A DNA stretch of 10,766 bases from a virus: UHGV virus genome UHGV-0121619. One strand, 5' to 3'. The position numbers were made by a program, and so were the translations under genes. The notes beneath the pieces are model-generated. The model searched no databases. It worked only from the letters and a program-made list of their open reading frames with translations, and was not told where the DNA came from. Of the stretch, positions 1,824 through 10,766 are shown one piece after another; the first letter of the stretch is position 1, and each line of letters opens with the position of its first letter.

Positions 1824-2335
1824 TATTTGCTCCTGTAGAATTCGCCGTGATGCTTTCTGGCAAAGTCGCAGTAAGCTTTTTTGGCATCTTCTAATTCATT
1901 AAAGTACCCTAGATGTTTTTTCTTCCCGTTTAATTTCCCATAGGCAGCCCACTTTCTACTTTCCTTCTTCCATGTGACTCCTTTGCAACCTGATTTGTTG
2001 AGGGTATTTATTTTACTATTCATTGAATTCTGTGAGTAAGTTGCAAGCCTCAGATTGCAAATTCTGTTATCTGTCTTTATGCCATTTATATGGTCGATAA
2101 TACCTTCAGGCTCAACACCGAAAGTGATAATCCATGCAAGTCTATGTGCAGCATAGTGTCTTCCGTTAATGAAAATCCTTAAGTAGCCGCTTGTTGTTAT
2201 TGTTCCGGCAGTTCCACCTATCTTTCTTGCTCCATAAGATTTTAGCCATGTGAACTCACCAGAAATAGGGTTATATTTGACAACATTATTAATCTCACTT
2301 AGGGAAATTAATTCAAGAATCTTTATAAATGCCAT
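1823..2335 (-). CDS. HNH homing endonuclease with C-terminal AP2-like DNA-binding domain
   Basis: Likely start ATG 2333-2335 (MAFIKILE..., AGGA RBS upstream; ORF track start at 2350 is TTG). HNH motif region DHINGIKTDNRICNLRLATYSQNSMN and AP2-like segment GVTWKKESRKWAAYGKLNGKKKHLGYFNELEDAKKAY. Confidence 0.8.
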   Translation of the reverse strand: MAFIKILELISLSEINNVVKYNPISGEFTWLKSYGARKIGGTAGTITTSGYLRIFINGRHYAAHRLAWIITFGVEPEGIIDHINGIKTDNRICNLRLATYSQNSMNSKINTLNKSGCKGVTWKKESRKWAAYGKLNGKKKHLGYFNELEDAKKAYCDFARKHHGEFYRSK

Positions 2336-2419
2336 TTTATATCCTATCAACTGCGTTCATTAATCAGCGTTTACGCTCATGAATAAACACCTCTCGTGAA
2401 GCGTTATTGGTATGCATAT

Positions 2420-2969: not shown

Positions 2970-3179
2970 TCAATCGTAATAAGCTGGAATTGATTTTCCG
3001 CGTTGCTTCTGGCGGCCTGAGCAGGTCACACCCATTTCACTGCGTGGCTTGCGGTAGTAAAGATTGTGCCTGTCTTTTAACCACATCAGGCTCGGTGGTT
3101 CTCGTGTACCCCTACAGCGAGAAATCGGATAAACTCTATTCACCCCTACAGAGAGCAAAAGAGAAACGCCGATGAACAA
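2970..3179 (-). pseudogene. remnant resembling the C-terminal region of lambda-type antiterminator N
   Basis: Last about 30 codons translate to KDRHNLYYRKPRSEMGVTCSGRQKQRGKSIPAYYD, closely matching recalled lambda N C-terminus (ERKNQRTWYSKPGERGITCSGRQKIKGKSIPLI); upstream part of the ORF lacks an Arg-rich RNA-binding motif; a complete P22-type N is present at 3770-4078. Confidence 0.35.
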
Positions 3180-3753
3180 CTCATGGTGGCAGGAACTAAT
3201 GCATTTTTTCCTGCAAGGAATGACACTTAAACAGTTGATTCATATGCTAATCATCCTGATCATATTGATTATTGTTATGCCGGTAAGCGTAAAAGAATGG
3301 ATAAACCTGCATAATCCAGAAATCCTTCCTCATTATTGGATGTATTACATCCTGTTGTTCTGCGTTAGCTATGTGCTTAACGGTGTTGTTAATTCCGCTT
3401 ATCACGCTGTGACTGAAAGAATTGAGGTATCCGCTGCTCAGAAGCGCAAATCTAAAGAAGAAAAATATGTGCAAGATTTGTTTGATTCGTTAACTCTTGG
3501 AGAAAGAGCGTATTTGGCATTCGCTGTAGCCGCGAATAACCAGCTAAAGACAGAAAAGGGAAGCCCCGAAGCAATCTCATTGCTCGAAAAAGGGCTTCTT
3601 ATTCGGATACCTTCTGCTACTGGATATCCTGAAATCGACCGTTTTGTTATCCCGGAACGCTATAGAAATGAGTGCTACATTAGGTTTGCTGGGAAGAAAG
3701 ACAGTCTTATGGATGAACTTATCGCTCAGGATAAGCATGGCAAAAACAAGTAA
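3172..3753 (+). CDS. sieB: SieB-like superinfection exclusion membrane protein
   Basis: 193-aa ORF with two N-terminal hydrophobic helices (LIHMLIILIILIIVMPVSV, HYWMYYILLFCVSYVLNGVV); convergent and adjacent to N as sieB is in lambda/P22. Family call from architecture and position, not alignment. Confidence 0.6.
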   Translation: MNNSWWQELMHFFLQGMTLKQLIHMLIILIILIIVMPVSVKEWINLHNPEILPHYWMYYILLFCVSYVLNGVVNSAYHAVTERIEVSAAQKRKSKEEKYVQDLFDSLTLGERAYLAFAVAANNQLKTEKGSPEAISLLEKGLLIRIPSATGYPEIDRFVIPERYRNECYIRFAGKKDSLMDELIAQDKHGKNK

Positions 3754-3769
3754 TTAGCAAATGATTTTA

Positions 3770-4078
3770 TCATCTCGCCGTCAGTTGTTTTGATTTCCGG
3801 TAGCCTGCCGCGTAAATGGCTACGTTTGGCAGGCAAATACTTCCACTGCATTCATCTGCCTTCTTGCAGCGAAGGCTTCCGAGTGATATTGCTTTTTCAG
3901 AAAGGCTTAAACGCTTTCTTGGGGCTTCCTGAACAGGTTCCTCACTGTCTGTGCCGAAGATAGAATCAATGATGTTGCAGATGGCATCACGCTCGATAGC
4001 CAGCTTTCTGCGCCGCTCATGACGGCGAGTTTTGGCATTTCCTGCAAATGTTGATTTCCCGTACACGATTACCGTCAT
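3770..4078 (-). CDS. N: antitermination protein N, P22 gene 24 type
   Basis: 102 aa from ATG 4076-4078 (MTVIVYGKSTFAGNAKTRRHERRRKLAIERD...), Arg-rich motif near N-terminus as in P22 gp24; AGGA RBS upstream; ORF track start at 4162 is an upstream in-frame Met. Confidence 0.85.
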   Translation of the reverse strand: MTVIVYGKSTFAGNAKTRRHERRRKLAIERDAICNIIDSIFGTDSEEPVQEAPRKRLSLSEKAISLGSLRCKKADECSGSICLPNVAIYAAGYRKSKQLTAR

Positions 4079-4197
4079 GATGTTTTCCTCATGTGAAATG
4101 GCTTTGGTGGTGATGCGCCAGATGCTGATCTTCTGGTTGCTGTCGTTGCAGCTGCAATTCACATCACCGCCAAACCCATCTCGTTTGGTATCTGTTT

Positions 4198-4711: not shown

Positions 4712-5614
4712 TTATGACTCACTTTGTTCTGAGAATGGGAATGAAGACAGAACAAGAACCTGTCGATTTGTCTTATACATGTATTCATTAATGACGTTGT
4801 GCAGATTTTTTAACGCCATGCTAAAATCTTTGTCGTATGTAAAGTCTTCTACTTTAATTCTTAAGTCATTGATAAGAGTATTTATTCCTATCGTTCTTCC
4901 GTGAGAATGCCACTTTCCGTTGTCACTAAGAGCGGTAGCGATCATTTTAGCTCTCGCTTCTTTTTCCCTCTTGGAAACTAGCTTTCCTCGTTTTGTGTTA
5001 CCTTGATGAACCGTCCACTCTCTGAATTTATACTCTACAAGCCACTTCTTAAGCAAGTCTATTGATAGCTCTCTGGCTTGCTCGTATCTCCTTAAGTGCG
5101 CAAGATCTAACTGACTAAGCATCATTAGTTCAGCTTGGGTAATGGTTCCTTCTCTGGATTTAGTAATCATTTCTTCAACTTTATCAAGGTATCCCAAAGC
5201 AGGAACCCATTTACCGTCAGAGGATTGCACTTGAGGGTCAATGGGGCCTAATGAAGAAGCATAGTTCATGTAAATTTTATCTCCAGACATACACCATATT
5301 GTGCCTGCCGACATGGCCATATCTGGAATGATAAAATATACCTCTTGATAGAAATGCCTTGTAATTTCTACCATTTTTTCCACAGACTCAACAGAGCCAC
5401 CATTTGTATTGAGTATAATAACTAGAAATCTATTGGTACGACTGTTAGCCATCTCCCCAATAGCCTCAAGTTTTGGTTGGTAAACTTCTTTTGACCATGG
5501 AAAGATACCACCGTAGTACGCTATGACGTCGCAGCTTGGGAAAAAGTTATTTTTAAATTGCTCTAACTGCCAAGAAATGTATGTTTCTAGTGTTGAATCA
5601 AGATTTTGGCTCAT
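4712..5614 (-). CDS. ClpP/S49-fold serine peptidase-like protein in the rexAB position (candidate exclusion/defence gene)
   Basis: 300-aa ORF; block LVIILNTNGGSVESVEKMVEITRHF...YFIIPDMAMSAGTIWCMSGDKIYMNYASSLGPIDPQV resembles the GG...(A)ASGG nucleophile region of SppA/ClpP-fold peptidases (putative Ser102 in AMSAG); lies directly downstream of cI on the same strand. Confidence 0.75.
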   Translation of the reverse strand: MSQNLDSTLETYISWQLEQFKNNFFPSCDVIAYYGGIFPWSKEVYQPKLEAIGEMANSRTNRFLVIILNTNGGSVESVEKMVEITRHFYQEVYFIIPDMAMSAGTIWCMSGDKIYMNYASSLGPIDPQVQSSDGKWVPALGYLDKVEEMITKSREGTITQAELMMLSQLDLAHLRRYEQARELSIDLLKKWLVEYKFREWTVHQGNTKRGKLVSKREKEARAKMIATALSDNGKWHSHGRTIGINTLINDLRIKVEDFTYDKDFSMALKNLHNVINEYMYKTNRQVLVLSSFPFSEQSES

Positions 5615-5686: not shown

Positions 5687-6403
<717 letters not shown>

Positions 6404-7401: not shown

Positions 7402-8349
7402 ATGAGCAATACAGCAAAAATCTACGATTTCAGCGCCGCACACGAGCGCAGGAGCAACAGGATGGAGAACCAGAAAACTGGTTACATTCCGTTGTACCGG
7501 AGCATTCTGAAACAGTCATGGGCGAAAGATGTTTATCTTCGCACCCTGTGGGAAAACCTTCTCCTGAATGCCGCCAGAAAGCCATACAAAGCGAATTTCA
7601 AAGGTCATGAATGGCATCTGCAACCCGGTCAACTGGTTGTGACAGCAGCTGATTTAGGTCTTCAGTTATGCGACAGGCATGGCAAGCCGGCAAGCCGTGA
7701 TCAGGTTGAGCGGATGCTTCAGGTTTTTGTGAAAGAGGGGATGATCTCCATTGATGGAGAGAAGCAAAAAGGTCGTGTGATAACCATCACAAATTACCAT
7801 GAATATGCTCAAAAAATGGACAATTTACCCGCACATGAAGCCGCACAAACAACCGCACATGATGCCGCACATGACGAAGCCAGTAATGGCGCGGCTTTCA
7901 GAGTACATGCCGCACATGAAAGCGCACATGAAGCCGCACAAACAACCGCACATCATGAACAAGAAGGTATTAACAAGAATATAAATAATGCCCCCCTACC
8001 CCCCAATGGGGGCGGCGATGGGCAGGTTAAACCTGAACGTCGCAAGGCAGAACGAATCGACTACGAATCCTTCCTGAACGCCTACAACACCGAAGTCGGT
8101 GACAGACTGCCACACGCTGTTGCGGTCAACGAGAAACGCAAACGCCGCCTGAAGAAAATCATCCCGCAACTGAAAACGCCAAACGTGGACGGTTTCAGAG
8201 CGTATGTCAGGGCGTTTGTGCATCAGGCAAAGCCGTTTTACTTCGGAGACAACGACACGGGCTGGACGGCAGATTTTGATTACCTGCTGAGGGAAGATTC
8301 GTTAACGGGAGTTCGGGAAGGGAAGTTTGCAGACAGGGGGATTGCATGA
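7402..8349 (+). CDS. replication initiator (lambda O / P22 gp18-like) with internal origin
   Basis: 315-aa ORF; N-terminus [10 protein letters not shown] resembles lambda O MTNTAKILNF; contains tandem iterons, AT-rich tract and Pro/Gly linker mid-gene; stop overlaps helicase start (ATGA at 8346-8349). Confidence 0.8.
7829..7957. repeat. origin-like iteron array: two clusters of four tandem 12-bp repeats (CCGCACATGAnG / CCGCACAAACAA)
   Basis: Units at 7829, 7841, 7853, 7865 and at 7910, 7922, 7934, 7946; followed by AT-rich 7958-7990 and C6-TA-C6-AAT-G5 hairpin-prone segment 7991-8013. Confidence 0.75.
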
Positions 8350-9722
8350 GACAGGATATCGAAGCGAGCGTTATCGGTGGCCTGCTGATTGGTGGATTAA
8401 CACCGACTGCCAGTGACGTTCTGGCAACGCTTGAGCCGGAAGCGTTTTCAATTCCGCTCTACCGGAAAGCCTTCGAGGTTATCCGCAAGCAGGCGAGGAA
8501 CAGAAACCTAATCGACGCGCTGATGGTTGCCGAGGCGTGCGGAGAGGAGCATTTCACGTCAATCCTGATGACCAGTAAGAACTGCCCGAGTGCCGCAAAC
8601 CTGAAGGGATATGCCGGAATGGTCGCGGATAACTATCACCGCCGTCTGGTGCTGGAAATCATGGATGAAATGCGTGAACCAATTCAGAGCGGAACCATCG
8701 ATACATCGAGTCAGGCGATGGACGAGCTTGTAAAGCGTCTCTCAGCCATCAGAAAGCCCCGTGACGAGGTTAAACCTGTACGGTTAGGGGAAATCATCAC
8801 TGACTACACTGACACGCTTGACAGGCGTCTGAGGAACGGAGAAGAGTCAGATACCCTGAAGACCGGAATCGAAGAACTTGATGCCATCACCGGAGGGATG
8901 AACGCAGAAGACCTGGTGATAATCGCTGCTCGTCCTGGTATGGGGAAAACCGAACTGGCGCTGAAGATTGCCGAAGGCGTTGCAAGCCGCGTTATTCCTG
9001 GTTCTGACGTCCGGCGCGGGGTATTGATTTTCTCAATGGAAATGAGCGCATTGCAGATTGCAGAGCGAAGCATCGCCAACGCCGGGAGGATGTCGGTTAG
9101 CGTGCTGCGAAATCCTGCATCGATGGATGACGAAGGCTGGGCGCGTGTTGCTAACGGCATGAGTCAGCTTGCAGATTTGGATGTATGGGTAGTCGATGCC
9201 TCGCGGTTATCGGTCGAAGAAATACGCTCAATCGCAGAACGGCACAAACAGGAAAATCCAAACCTCTCACTCATCATGGCGGATTATCTTGGCCTGATTG
9301 AGAAGCCGAAAGCAGACCGCAACGACCTCGCAATTGCTCACATCTCCGGAAGCCTGAAGGCGATGGCGAAAGACCTGAAAACGCCTGTTATCTCCCTGAG
9401 TCAGCTTTCGCGCGATGTTGAGAAGCGACCAAACAAACGCCCGACAAACGCAGATTTGCGTGATTCAGGAAGCATTGAACAGGACGCAGACTCAATCATC
9501 ATGCTCTATCGGGAAGCGGTATATGACGAGAACAGTAGCGCCGCACCATTTGCTGAAATCATTGTGACAAAAAACCGTTTTGGCTCGCTTGGTACGGTTT
9601 ACCAGCGGTTCTGCAACGGACACTTTGTTGCATGTGACCAGGATGAAGCCAGACAGATTTGCACAGCATCAAATGCGCCCGCTGCGCGTGGCAGACGATA
9701 TGCACAAGGGGCTGACGTATGA
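8346..9722 (+). CDS. DnaB-like replicative helicase (P22 gene 12 type)
   Basis: 458-aa ORF; Walker [13 protein letters not shown], DnaB-like N-terminal domain and C-terminal RecA-like core ([12 protein letters not shown]..., [11 protein letters not shown]). Confidence 0.9.
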
Positions 9723-9748
9723 CCATCTACGTCACTGAGCTAATAACA

Positions 9749-9780
9749 GGCCTGCTGGTAATCGCAGGCCTTTTTATTTG
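9749..9780 (+). terminator. intrinsic terminator after helicase gene (tR2-like)
   Basis: 8-bp stem AGGCCTGC (9749-9756) / loop TGGTAATC / GCAGGCCT (9765-9772) followed by TTTTTATTT. Confidence 0.7.
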
Positions 9781-9794
9781 GGGGAGAGTAAATC

Positions 9795-10001
9795 GTGGCT
9801 GAGTTGATTTTCTCTGCATTGAGGATTCTCGGTGCTATGTGGATGGTGGCGACGTTCATTGTGGTTGCCAGCAGTTTTGTCCGGTTGGTAGGCGAAGGTA
9901 AAGACCTGGTTGGTGTGCTTTTCGGTAGCATTTTCCTGTGGGTGATTATCGGTGTTATGCCTGTCGCTGTAGCAAAAATGGCGTGGCGTTTTGTGAGTTA
10001 A
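9795..10001 (+). CDS. hypothetical small membrane protein (68 aa, two predicted TM helices)
   Basis: GTG start 9795 with GGGAGAG RBS about 7 nt upstream; MAELIFSALRILGAMWMVATFIVVASSFVRLVGEGKDLVGVLFGSIFLWVIIGVMPVAVAKMAWRFVS is strongly hydrophobic. Confidence 0.5.
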   Translation: MAELIFSALRILGAMWMVATFIVVASSFVRLVGEGKDLVGVLFGSIFLWVIIGVMPVAVAKMAWRFVS

Positions 10002-10013
10002 TCGGAGGTTAAT

Positions 10014-10436
10014 GTGAGCAAGTGCCAAAAGTGCAATAACACAGGAATGTGTGATAGCGGAGGTTCTACTCCTTGGGGAGAGCCGATTTTTATTGAATGT
10101 GACTGCCTTATGAAAGATGACGAAAGCAGATGCCAGTTTGAAGAGAGTTGGTTACGACGTGGGGGCGAATCTTCAGACCTTATCCGTTACCCTGAAAATC
10201 ACCATGAAATTGGCAGTGGTGATATTGGTGGTCAATACGTGATGGACGATGTTCAAGGCCACTGGCAAACGTGGCAGGCATCGCGAGCAGCTATTGAAAT
10301 AACCGCGCCAAAGTTTATCGACAGCAGAGAAGCATTAGCCAAAGGGTTTACTGTTGATTATTCCAATGGCTTCGGTGATGCAATGGATGCTTATGAGGAA
10401 AACATCCGCGCCGCTGGAGTCAAAGTGAAGGAGTGA
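10014..10436 (+). CDS. hypothetical protein with N-terminal Cys-rich (CxxC...CxC) putative zinc-ribbon
   Basis: 140-aa ORF, GTG start 10014 with GGAGGT RBS upstream; MSKCQKCNNTGMCDSGG...IECDC; stop is 2 nt before ninB-like start. Confidence 0.55.
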   Translation: MSKCQKCNNTGMCDSGGSTPWGEPIFIECDCLMKDDESRCQFEESWLRRGGESSDLIRYPENHHEIGSGDIGGQYVMDDVQGHWQTWQASRAAIEITAPKFIDSREALAKGFTVDYSNGFGDAMDAYEENIRAAGVKVKE

Positions 10437-10438
10437 CG

Positions 10439-10766
10439 ATGAAGCAAACAATCTTCCTCCGAAGTAAGCAACAACAGCAAGCCGCAATAAATGCCATCCT
10501 CGCAACACCACTCGATAAAGACAAGCCAGTCACCATCCGCATTACTGACTACAAGCGCAACCTTGACCAGAACGCAAAATTTCACGTGATGCTGGCGGAT
10601 ATCGCTCGTCAGGTTCAATGGTGCGGCAAATGGTTAAAACCAGAACAATGGAAGGTTTTGTTGATTAGCGGTCATGCAGTGGCGACAAAGCAGGAAGCTG
10701 ATGTTTTGCCCGGGCTTGAAGGCGAATACGTCAACATTCGCGAAAGCAGCGCGCAGATGAGCGTGA
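10439..10766 (+). CDS. ninB: NinB-like recombination protein, N-terminal portion (continues beyond window)
   Basis: ATG 10439; MKQTIFLRSKQQQQAAINAILATPLDKDKPVTIRITDYKRNLDQNAKFHVMLADIARQVQWCGKWLKPEQWK resembles recalled lambda NinB (LDQNRK..., RQVEWHGRWL...ESWK); no stop in window. Confidence 0.7.
   Translation, partial: MKQTIFLRSKQQQQAAINAILATPLDKDKPVTIRITDYKRNLDQNAKFHVMLADIARQVQWCGKWLKPEQWKVLLISGHAVATKQEADVLPGLEGEYVNIRESSAQMSV

Follow-up and report, generated by a model that had tools for sequence, protein, structure and literature searches.

Two probable lytic accessory genes between the tR2-equivalent terminator and ninB in the early region of a lambdoid phage

What is encoded by the two small open reading frames (ORFs) at the entry of the nin region of UHGV virus genome UHGV-0121619, and at what stage of phage development would their products act? 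The stretch of DNA analysed, referred to here as the window, comprises 10,766 nucleotides and represents the early region of a lambdoid phage or prophage of the HK97/HK022 kind; HK97 matches about half of it at 97% identity. An earlier note, made from the nucleotide sequence alone, had placed two genes between a strong, tR2-like terminator and ninB: a GTG-initiated gene for a 68-amino acid (aa) protein with two hydrophobic helices (ORF-A) and a gene for a 140-aa protein with an N-terminal CxxC...CxC cluster (ORF-B). It is apparent that these observations were accurate, as a canonical hairpin followed by a T-run is present at 9748-9771, the two ORFs occupy 9795-10001 and 10014-10436, and ninB begins at 10439. 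The note's further proposals, that the genes lie where lambda has ren and may specify an exclusion effector or toxin, went beyond what function and slot allow. The data presented below show ORF-A and ORF-B to be genuine and conserved accessory genes, of the dispensable type, in the lambdoid nin region; they make it moderately probable that the two act independently and are expressed lytically in an N-dependent manner, with ORF-A as a membrane modulator and ORF-B as a binding protein.

Comparative data indicate that ORF-A (9795-10001, plus strand, GTG start) is a genuine gene, since its 68-codon frame is open in 150 loci, its variation is biased to third codon positions, it is represented by three lineages at 44-100% identity, and it is matched over its full length by PHROG 1165. 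The hidden Markov model (HMM) of that family aligns residues 1-68 of ORF-A with profile positions 1-68 of 68 (E 3.5e-37). All 150 of the full-length alignments, drawn from related viral and genomic loci, retain an open frame of 68 codons; 84 of these loci were inspected codon by codon, and a few further loci were aligned only partially. Variable sites are distributed 33/22/41 over the three codon positions, the third being the richest, and the ratio of non-synonymous to synonymous polymorphism (pN/pS) is 0.40. A G-rich sequence resembling a Shine-Dalgarno (SD) element, GGGGGAGAG, was read from the sequence at 9780-9788 (plus strand) and is kept in all of the 150 aligned loci, in which ORF-A holds a conserved position, behind a block containing ninA and tR2 and ahead of ninB or ORF-B.

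The three lineages of ORF-A are the type found in the window (84-100% identity), the HK620/H-19B type (55-60%) and a Salmonella P22-like type (44%), the last of which begins with ATG instead of GTG and has its own SD element. The 68-aa length, the two hydrophobic helices, the loop RLVxxGKD and the C-terminal motif WVIIGVMPVxVAKxAWRF are kept in all three. Approximately 205-228 ORF-A clusters were recovered from 5.8 billion protein clusters; almost all are 68 aa long, none is informatively named, and every cluster with an organism name derives from Escherichia or Salmonella. Outside these two genera, no relatives were recovered by a profile search that took in all ORF-A types. ORF-A is present in 107 phage records, among them HK022 (gp58), HK75, HK629/630, mEp235, mEpX1 and 48 Stx2a-converting phages, and is carried by 528 of 5426 complete E. 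coli genomes. Members of PHROG 1165, which include Stx2-converting phage 86 gp69 and mEpX1 gp49 in addition to HK022 gp58, share the length and the position of ORF-A, and the HK75, HK629 and HK630 ORFs are 100% identical to it over residues 2-68. No substantive difference separates the window from these relatives: it holds the common type-1 allele of the family. Intact 68-codon homologs with approximately 56% identity were also observed in HK620 (L002:2577-2783) and H-19B (AF034975.3 8088-8291), where they are not annotated, and annotation of ORF-A is likewise missing from NC_002166.

The hydrophobicity profile of ORF-A, calculated by the Kyte-Doolittle method over 19 residues, has peaks of 2.15 at residues 11-29 and 2.49 at residues 41-59. 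With an isoelectric point (pI) of 9.98 and a grand average of hydropathy (GRAVY) of 1.49, the product is, by these sequence-derived measures, a basic protein with two transmembrane (TM) helices. It is predicted to lie in the inner membrane as a two-pass protein with both termini in the cytoplasm and the RLVxxGKD loop in the periplasm, following the positive-inside rule (R10; K61, R65). In two IMG/VR loci (L149:2788-2970 and L164:2788-2970), an unrelated 60-aa two-TM ORF, only 18% identical, sits exactly in the place of ORF-A between the helicase gene and an ORF-B-family gene. This replacement suggests that membrane character is what matters at that place. In a Pseudomonas putida prophage (L187:3854-4075), a 73-aa hydrophobic ORF was observed directly behind the ORF-B homolog.

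Small phage membrane proteins with two TM helices include the class II holins or pinholins, such as S21, and T4 Imm, and ORF-A shares with S21-type pinholins and Imm both its size (approximately 68-83 aa) and its two-helix hairpin topology. The two TM domains that mark class II holins are evident in its hydrophobicity profile. ORF-A differs from holins, however, in that it sits in the early operon, between helicase and ninB, and not in the lysis cassette; in related genomes, including a near-identical prophage, the holin gene lies beyond Q. Its C-terminal tail, AKMAWRFVS, has no strong charge (K61 and R65 only), and a dual-start motif is lacking. Identity as a class II holin or pinholin was rejected on the basis of the early-operon location and the lack of a strongly charged tail and of a dual start. 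A Hok-like toxin was considered and was also rejected. Scans of Pfam, PHROG and PADLOC detected no homology of ORF-A to any annotated protein family.

The sequences immediately upstream of ORF-A bear directly on its expression. An intrinsic terminator equivalent to tR2 is situated at 9748-9781 (plus strand), with a stem formed by 9748-9755 and 9764-9771, a loop of 8 nt and a T-run from 9772. According to terminator scanning and folding, the stem (AGGCCTGC/GCAGGCCT) comprises 8 bp, of which 6 are G-C, and is followed by TTTTTATTT. The hairpin at 9748-9771 is the sole terminator-like site within 9300-10766, and it is almost invariant over the 150 loci. The HK620 record labels the equivalent hairpin tR2, and the mEp235 record labels it a rho-independent terminator. 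No Rfam match was found in the window.

The hairpin lies within a mini-ORF of 27 aa, ninA (9719-9802, plus strand), the 84-nt ORF that carries this name in HK620 and SPN9CC; its hydrophobicity profile indicates one hydrophobic helix. The ninA ATG overlaps the stop codon of the helicase gene (ATGA), and the end of ninA (TGA, 9800-9802) overlaps the start of ORF-A (GTG, 9795-9797). A conserved 80-nt block, consisting of ninA, the tR2 hairpin and the SD element of ORF-A, precedes ORF-A in almost all loci. Among the 150 loci, at least seven unrelated genes end at this block; their stop codons overlap or abut the ninA ATG, mostly as ATGA, and each supplies its own, different SD-like GGAG or GGGG 6-8 nt before that ATG. 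The supply of such a motif by so many unrelated genes suggests that ninA is translated, with ribosomes crossing the terminator hairpin, and their passage might affect termination. The ninA frame is disrupted in approximately 4 loci, and its N-terminus is exchanged in approximately 7, in three sequence variants.

Packing is tight throughout: helicase and ninA are joined by ATGA, ninA overlaps ORF-A, and intervals of only 12 nt and 2 nt separate ORF-A from ORF-B and ORF-B from ninB, respectively. Such ATGA-type packing, or translational chaining, is typical for nin operons (PMC8022706). On account of the layout of the ninA/tR2 block and the overlap of ninA with the ORF-A start, ORF-A is the first substantial gene past tR2 and is translationally chained to its neighbours. 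The genes that frame this segment are that for a DnaB-like replicative helicase (8346-9722, plus strand; Pfam DnaB_C 9e-78, DnaB N-terminal domain 4.5e-13), the last replication gene of the pR operon, and ninB, which encodes the Orf recombination mediator and is cut by the end of the window (10439-10766, plus strand; Pfam NinB 6.3e-44).

A consensus scan for sigma-70 promoter-like sites found none in 9300-10766, and no promoter/terminator pair of the kind that marks a moron flanks ORF-A and ORF-B. Since the genes have no promoter of their own, are preceded by a terminator within the N-dependent pR operon, and share the window with an N gene, expression would be confined to the lytic phase. N-modified polymerase would read through tR2, and ORF-A and ORF-B would be made minutes after infection or induction and not in the lysogen. 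Lytic expression of this kind would argue against a classic exclusion or toxin role exercised in the lysogen.

ORF-B (10014-10436, plus strand) also begins with GTG and specifies an acidic, soluble protein of 140 aa, with a pI of 4.6 and a net charge of -11. Its SD element, GGAGG (10004-10008, plus strand), is located 5 nt before the GTG, an ideal spacing, and is identical in 10 long-form loci, in which the start codon is GTG or TTG. The family to which it belongs is catalogued as PHROG 343, PF26207 and 'phiTE_015 family', the last being the name, taken from phage phiTE, that recent RefSeq records give to genes 95-99% identical to it. The PHROG 343 HMM matches residues 27-140 (E 1.9e-29), and 129 of 129 aligned relatives match it as well. 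A precomputed PF26207 hit is present on all 120 homologs among the matches listed. The match to PHROG 343, together with the size of the family, 847 clusters at 50% identity in an exhaustive profile search (318 in the first search), indicates that ORF-B is a genuine gene. The clusters are mostly single-domain proteins of 85-135 aa, and the median pI of the family is 4.9.

A genome scan with a sub-alignment of the family revealed relatives in prophages of Pseudomonas, Erwinia, Yersinia, Serratia, Providencia, Proteus, Arsenophonus and a few Betaproteobacteria, usually directly behind replication genes and ahead of NinB-like genes. Pseudomonas, Serratia and Erwinia prophages preserve this synteny at approximately 30-40% identity, and the family also occurs in virulent phages. 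HK022 gp59, mEp235 gp47 and 933W ST933Wp31 share with ORF-B the core SRxQFExxW ... WxxWQASRAAIEI ... AIRAAGxKVKE and, like it, lie upstream of ninB; the annotation of mEp235 itself likens gp47 to the Sf6 gene 48 protein. In contrast to most PHROG 343 members, the ORF-B of the window bears a four-Cys N-terminal module that is found in 9 of 80 ORF-B loci. The family has no solved structure.

Three segments can be distinguished in ORF-B. The optional module, with C4, C7, C29 and C31, occupies residues 1-31 (10014-10106) and is zinc-knuckle-like, with a predicted beta-hairpin; its sequence, MSKCQKCNNTGMCDSGGSTPWGEPIFIECDC, supplies the CxxC...CxC pattern. Residues 36-97 (10119-10304) form the family core, composed of a helix (ESRxQFExxW), a variable loop (approximately residues 49-77), a second helix (WxxWQASRAAIE) and a strand (IEI), the second helix running into the strand IEIELP. 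Within the core, F42, W87 and R91 are invariant, and R39, E43, W84, A89 and S90 are nearly so. Alignments identify residues 98-140, which with the stop codon occupy 10305-10436, as an exchangeable C-terminal module ending in AIRAAGxKVKE. ORF-B is 79% identical to full-length relatives and 96% identical, over its C-terminal 75%, to a short-form relative, a mosaic pattern in which the Cys module of one subgroup is joined to the C-terminal part of another. Further additions occur in the family: a member in Salmonella phage SPN9CC (L167:1937-2443) has an 80-aa N-terminal add-on, and two others (P0277 and P0033) have a 35-aa add-on, MRWAIKHKSGRTLFVTSDEFIANNRRKMGWIVEEV, which sometimes stands ahead of the Cys module. 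No Pfam family is matched by these add-ons.

The four Cys residues and the motif DSGGxxPWGEP are conserved in diverged ORF-B homologs. The module is also found internally in longer homologs of 160 aa, in some of them behind a further N-terminal module, and shows 68% identity, across 28 columns, with a protein of 75 aa from Pseudomonas phage PPSC2. Only 6 of 145 family representatives start with it. Lar and the DnaJ-type CxxCxGxG zinc fingers are likewise small Cys-rich modules, and ORF-B homologs read CPKCNGTG, which conforms to CxxCxGxG; the ORF-B of the window, however, reads CQKCNNTG (CxxCxxxG) and has one CxxC and one CxC in place of the repeated CxxCxGxG units of the DnaJ type. When 25 family members were compared with the Pfam models Lar_restr_allev and DnaJ zinc finger at E up to 10, no hit was obtained, while the positive control, 933W p32, matched Lar_restr_allev at 4.4e-05; identity of the module with Lar was rejected on these grounds. 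A match to GRXCR1/2_C in 2 of the 25 members (E 0.05) is at chance level. Pfam scans of the extra N- and C-terminal modules and of neighbouring small ORFs returned only a domain of unknown function and the Lar control.

An AlphaFold model of ORF-B built from a deep alignment had a predicted local distance difference test (pLDDT) score of 86.2 and a predicted template modelling (pTM) score of 0.64. It contains strands at residues 12-18 and 24-28 (the Cys hairpin, pLDDT 87-89), helices at 30-48 and 78-93, and a C-terminal helix-strand unit. In the modelled core, the two conserved helices pack through F42, W84 and W87 and bracket the hypervariable loop. A model made from close homologs reached a pLDDT of 69 and, when searched by Foldseek in BFVD, retrieved only uncharacterised phage proteins. 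Foldseek comparison of the ORF-B models with solved structures in the PDB gave no match and indicated no enzyme-like fold, sequence profile searches of the PDB were empty, and the family fold is apparently new. HMM and structure searches, proposed in the earlier note as a check, therefore led to PHROG 1165 and PHROG 343 and to no characterised family or solved fold. The homologs are all labelled hypothetical; structural or housekeeping relatives, which would have counted against the note, were not encountered.

Variability and independence of the two genes were assessed from 80 loci for each. Behind ORF-A, an ORF-B-family gene follows in 38 of 80 loci (3 of them with the long form), ninB follows directly in 31, and other ORFs are found in 8, in agreement with the variable slot that had been postulated for the nin-region entry. 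ORF-B is missing from 39 of 80 ORF-A loci, and ORF-A from 12 of 80 ORF-B loci and from 933W. As each is found without the other, we infer that the two do not form a pair and act independently. Alleles of ORF-A, moreover, show no fixed pairing with either helicase type or either NinB type. For the particular arrangement in the window, the best match to the 801 queried bases of the ORF-A/ORF-B interval is a prophage in E. coli strain 1506, with 98.1% identity over the full span.

The proposed equivalence with the lambda ren slot was not borne out. Like ORF-A and ORF-B, ren is small and non-essential and is located after the replication genes and ahead of ninB, but it lies upstream of the tR2 block, whereas they lie downstream; no sequence similarity is evident, with no Pfam hit for either ORF. 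In mEpX1, the order is a Ren-like gene, the terminator block, an ORF-A homolog and ninB; in 933W (L169:7551-8357), it is ren, the ninA/tR2 block, the ORF-B-family gene ST933Wp31, a Lar-like restriction-alleviation gene (Pfam Lar_restr_allev 4.4e-05) and ninB. Because Ren-like genes sit upstream of the terminator block alongside ORF-A or ORF-B homologs in these phages, the gene order indicates that ORF-A and ORF-B occupy the next slot, between tR2 and ninB. That they are Ren homologs was rejected for the same reason, and for want of a Pfam hit. The Lar-like gene of 933W demonstrates, in addition, that the tR2-ninB slot can hold anti-restriction cargo.

As regards the roles of the two proteins, ORF-A would most likely insert into the inner membrane and modulate host membrane function during lytic growth. 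It might act on the entry of DNA from secondary phages, on an abortive-infection sensor in the membrane or on the timing of lysis. ORF-B would most likely be a non-enzymatic binding protein, in which a conserved scaffold presents variable surfaces to a host or phage partner. This suggestion derives from its acidity, the lack of a recognised catalytic motif in the family alignments, the exchangeability of the loop between the conserved helices and of the N- and C-terminal modules, and the confident model without an enzyme-like fold; it derives also from the Lar-like gene beside the ORF-B homolog in 933W and from the synteny kept between replication genes and NinB. The role of ORF-B may be that of an inhibitor in counter-defence or host takeover, or it may assist the neighbouring recombination/replication module; the former is ranked slightly ahead of the latter. 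Any one specific guess at function is, taken singly, improbable; the general statement, that these are genuine, independent, N-dependent lytic accessory genes of catalogued families, is far more secure.

Alternative explanations were weighed against this reading. With respect to ORF-A, the stretch might be conserved as DNA or RNA (the terminator, ribosome-binding or coupling signals for ninB, or a recombination linker), with the frame incidental and the protein non-functional. The near-identity, in nucleotides, of the 5' flank (the ninA/tR2 block) and the last 60 nt or so of ORF-A across otherwise differing phages would fit, as would the pN/pS of 0.40 and the records of HK620, H-19B and NC_002166 that do not annotate the gene; yet all 150 full-length copies are open for 68 codons, lineages at 44-57% identity keep the length, helices, loop and C-terminal motif, the Salmonella type has an ATG and an SD element of its own, variation follows codon position, and Rfam is silent, so that this explanation is highly improbable. 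More weight, but still little, can be given to the proposal of the earlier note, in the form that ORF-A, and perhaps ORF-B, is an exclusion effector or toxin expressed from the prophage, moron-like cargo that protects the lysogen or kills the cell. Small two-helix membrane proteins do include known exclusion proteins and toxins, the slot is variable, a non-homologous two-TM ORF can take the place of ORF-A, and the gene is frequent in E. coli. No positive evidence for such a role was obtained, however: scans of ORF-A and ORF-B against Pfam, NCBIfam and PADLOC gave no hits (0 PADLOC families at E up to 1; the local Pfam copy lacks the PF26207 model). Also opposed to it are the terminator immediately upstream in an N-dependent operon, the lack of a promoter-like site and of a moron-type flanking pair, the translational chaining of ORF-A to its neighbours, and the fact that the window already encodes SieB beside the N gene. 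It is considered quite unlikely.

With respect to ORF-B, the true product might be a short form of 108 aa initiated at the ATG at 10110, the Cys stretch being an untranslated leader. NCBI calls the near-identical gene of E. coli strain 1506 in this way, excluding the Cys module, which is missing from most of the family (71 of 80 loci). Against this, GGAGG stands 5 nt before the GTG or TTG and no SD-like motif was seen before the internal ATG, diverged homologs retain the Cys residues and DSGGxxPWGEP in their protein sequences, the module is internal in 160-aa homologs, and it is modelled as a confident hairpin; dN/dS (the ratio of non-synonymous to synonymous substitution rates) was uninformative for the module, the local copies being nucleotide-identical save for the GTG/TTG start. 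The long form is therefore regarded as better supported by the sequence comparisons, and the short form as very doubtful. It is less doubtful, while still unlikely, that ORF-B serves the recombination/replication machinery of the phage, for example by partnering or regulating NinB/Orf or the helicase, instead of inhibiting host functions. Most nin genes of known function, such as those for NinB and RusA, act on DNA (PMC8022706). ORF-B-family genes lie 2-9 nt upstream of ninB in many loci, the place between replication and NinB-like genes is kept in the distant prophages mentioned above, and the N-terminal add-on is a predicted zinc-knuckle. Many NinB phages nevertheless lack ORF-B, as in the 31 loci that pass from ORF-A straight to ninB; ORF-B is found together with NinB of either type (97% and 35-43% identical); the family extends to virulent phages; and strong acidity is unusual for a DNA binder.

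Several points weigh against the reading of ORF-A and ORF-B as lytic accessory genes and temper the strength with which it can be held. The functional statements all rest on position, composition and architecture; positional synteny is strong for all lambdoid genes and says little about function, and acidity alone does not prove an inhibitor. The pN/pS of ORF-A reflects moderate constraint only, and much of what is conserved at its 5' flank and 3' end is nucleotide sequence, for which recombination joints could account. In the case of ORF-B, the long form that includes the Cys module departs from the NCBI annotation. The promoter scan, finally, covers the sigma-70 consensus only, and a weak or activator-dependent promoter could escape it.

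In the remainder of the window, on the minus strand, genes were identified for an ERF recombinase (693-1325), the N antiterminator (3773-4162) and the CI repressor (5687-6400), and cro and cII lie between CI and the replication protein O gene (7402-8349). A gene for a SieB superinfection-exclusion homolog (3172-3750, plus strand; Pfam 1.4e-25) adjoins N. Among the early-left genes, a homing endonuclease gene with HNH_3 and AP2 domains is inserted (1826-2350, minus strand; Pfam 1.8e-15 and 1.2e-06, PADLOC 'HEase' 4.8e-05). The place of lambda rexAB, beside the CI gene, is occupied by a gene for a ClpP-like SDH-type serine protease of 300 aa (4715-5614, minus strand; Pfam 1.6e-10). PADLOC gave no match for this protease; it is possibly a candidate prophage-expressed defence or accessory gene.

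ORF-A and ORF-B are already present in databases, as hypothetical proteins of well-known phages that belong to catalogued families, and what the window adds is one more mosaic combination, the ordinary content of a nin region. Conserved nin genes of this kind, without a known function, have reportedly been recognised since the HK022/HK97 and P22 genome papers. Nin-region genes as a class have long been described as non-essential, with functions assigned to only a minority of them (PMC5630979, PMC8022706), and other publications provide only general statements to the same effect (PMC2629481, PMC11016777, PMC3349717, PMC11972413, PMC3475682). Literature searches retrieved no experiments or publications on the ORF-A or ORF-B proteins, and no paper discussing PF26207 or the phiTE_015 family.

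A bolder version of the interpretation, which is given a small probability, would make ORF-A, possibly together with the chained 27-aa ninA peptide, a lytic-phase inner-membrane effector novel in lambdoid phages, for example an Imm-like block to the entry of secondary DNA or a neutraliser of an abortive-infection system located in the membrane. ORF-B and its phiTE_015 relatives would then be modular counter-defence or host-takeover binders with a new fold, their specificity set by the variable loop and the swapped modules. The residual interest of the locus lies in the prevalence of ORF-A in phages of pathogenic E. coli and in the apparently new fold of ORF-B. If a function were found, its reach would be wide: ORF-A is present in about one-tenth of complete E. 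coli genomes, in 48 of the Stx2a-converting phage records that were searched, as well as in P22-like Salmonella phages, and the ORF-B family, with approximately 850 clusters, extends across phages of Gamma- and Betaproteobacteria and has a confident predicted fold without a solved relative. Both genes would thus be good and cheap targets for a systematic study of phage 'dark matter'.

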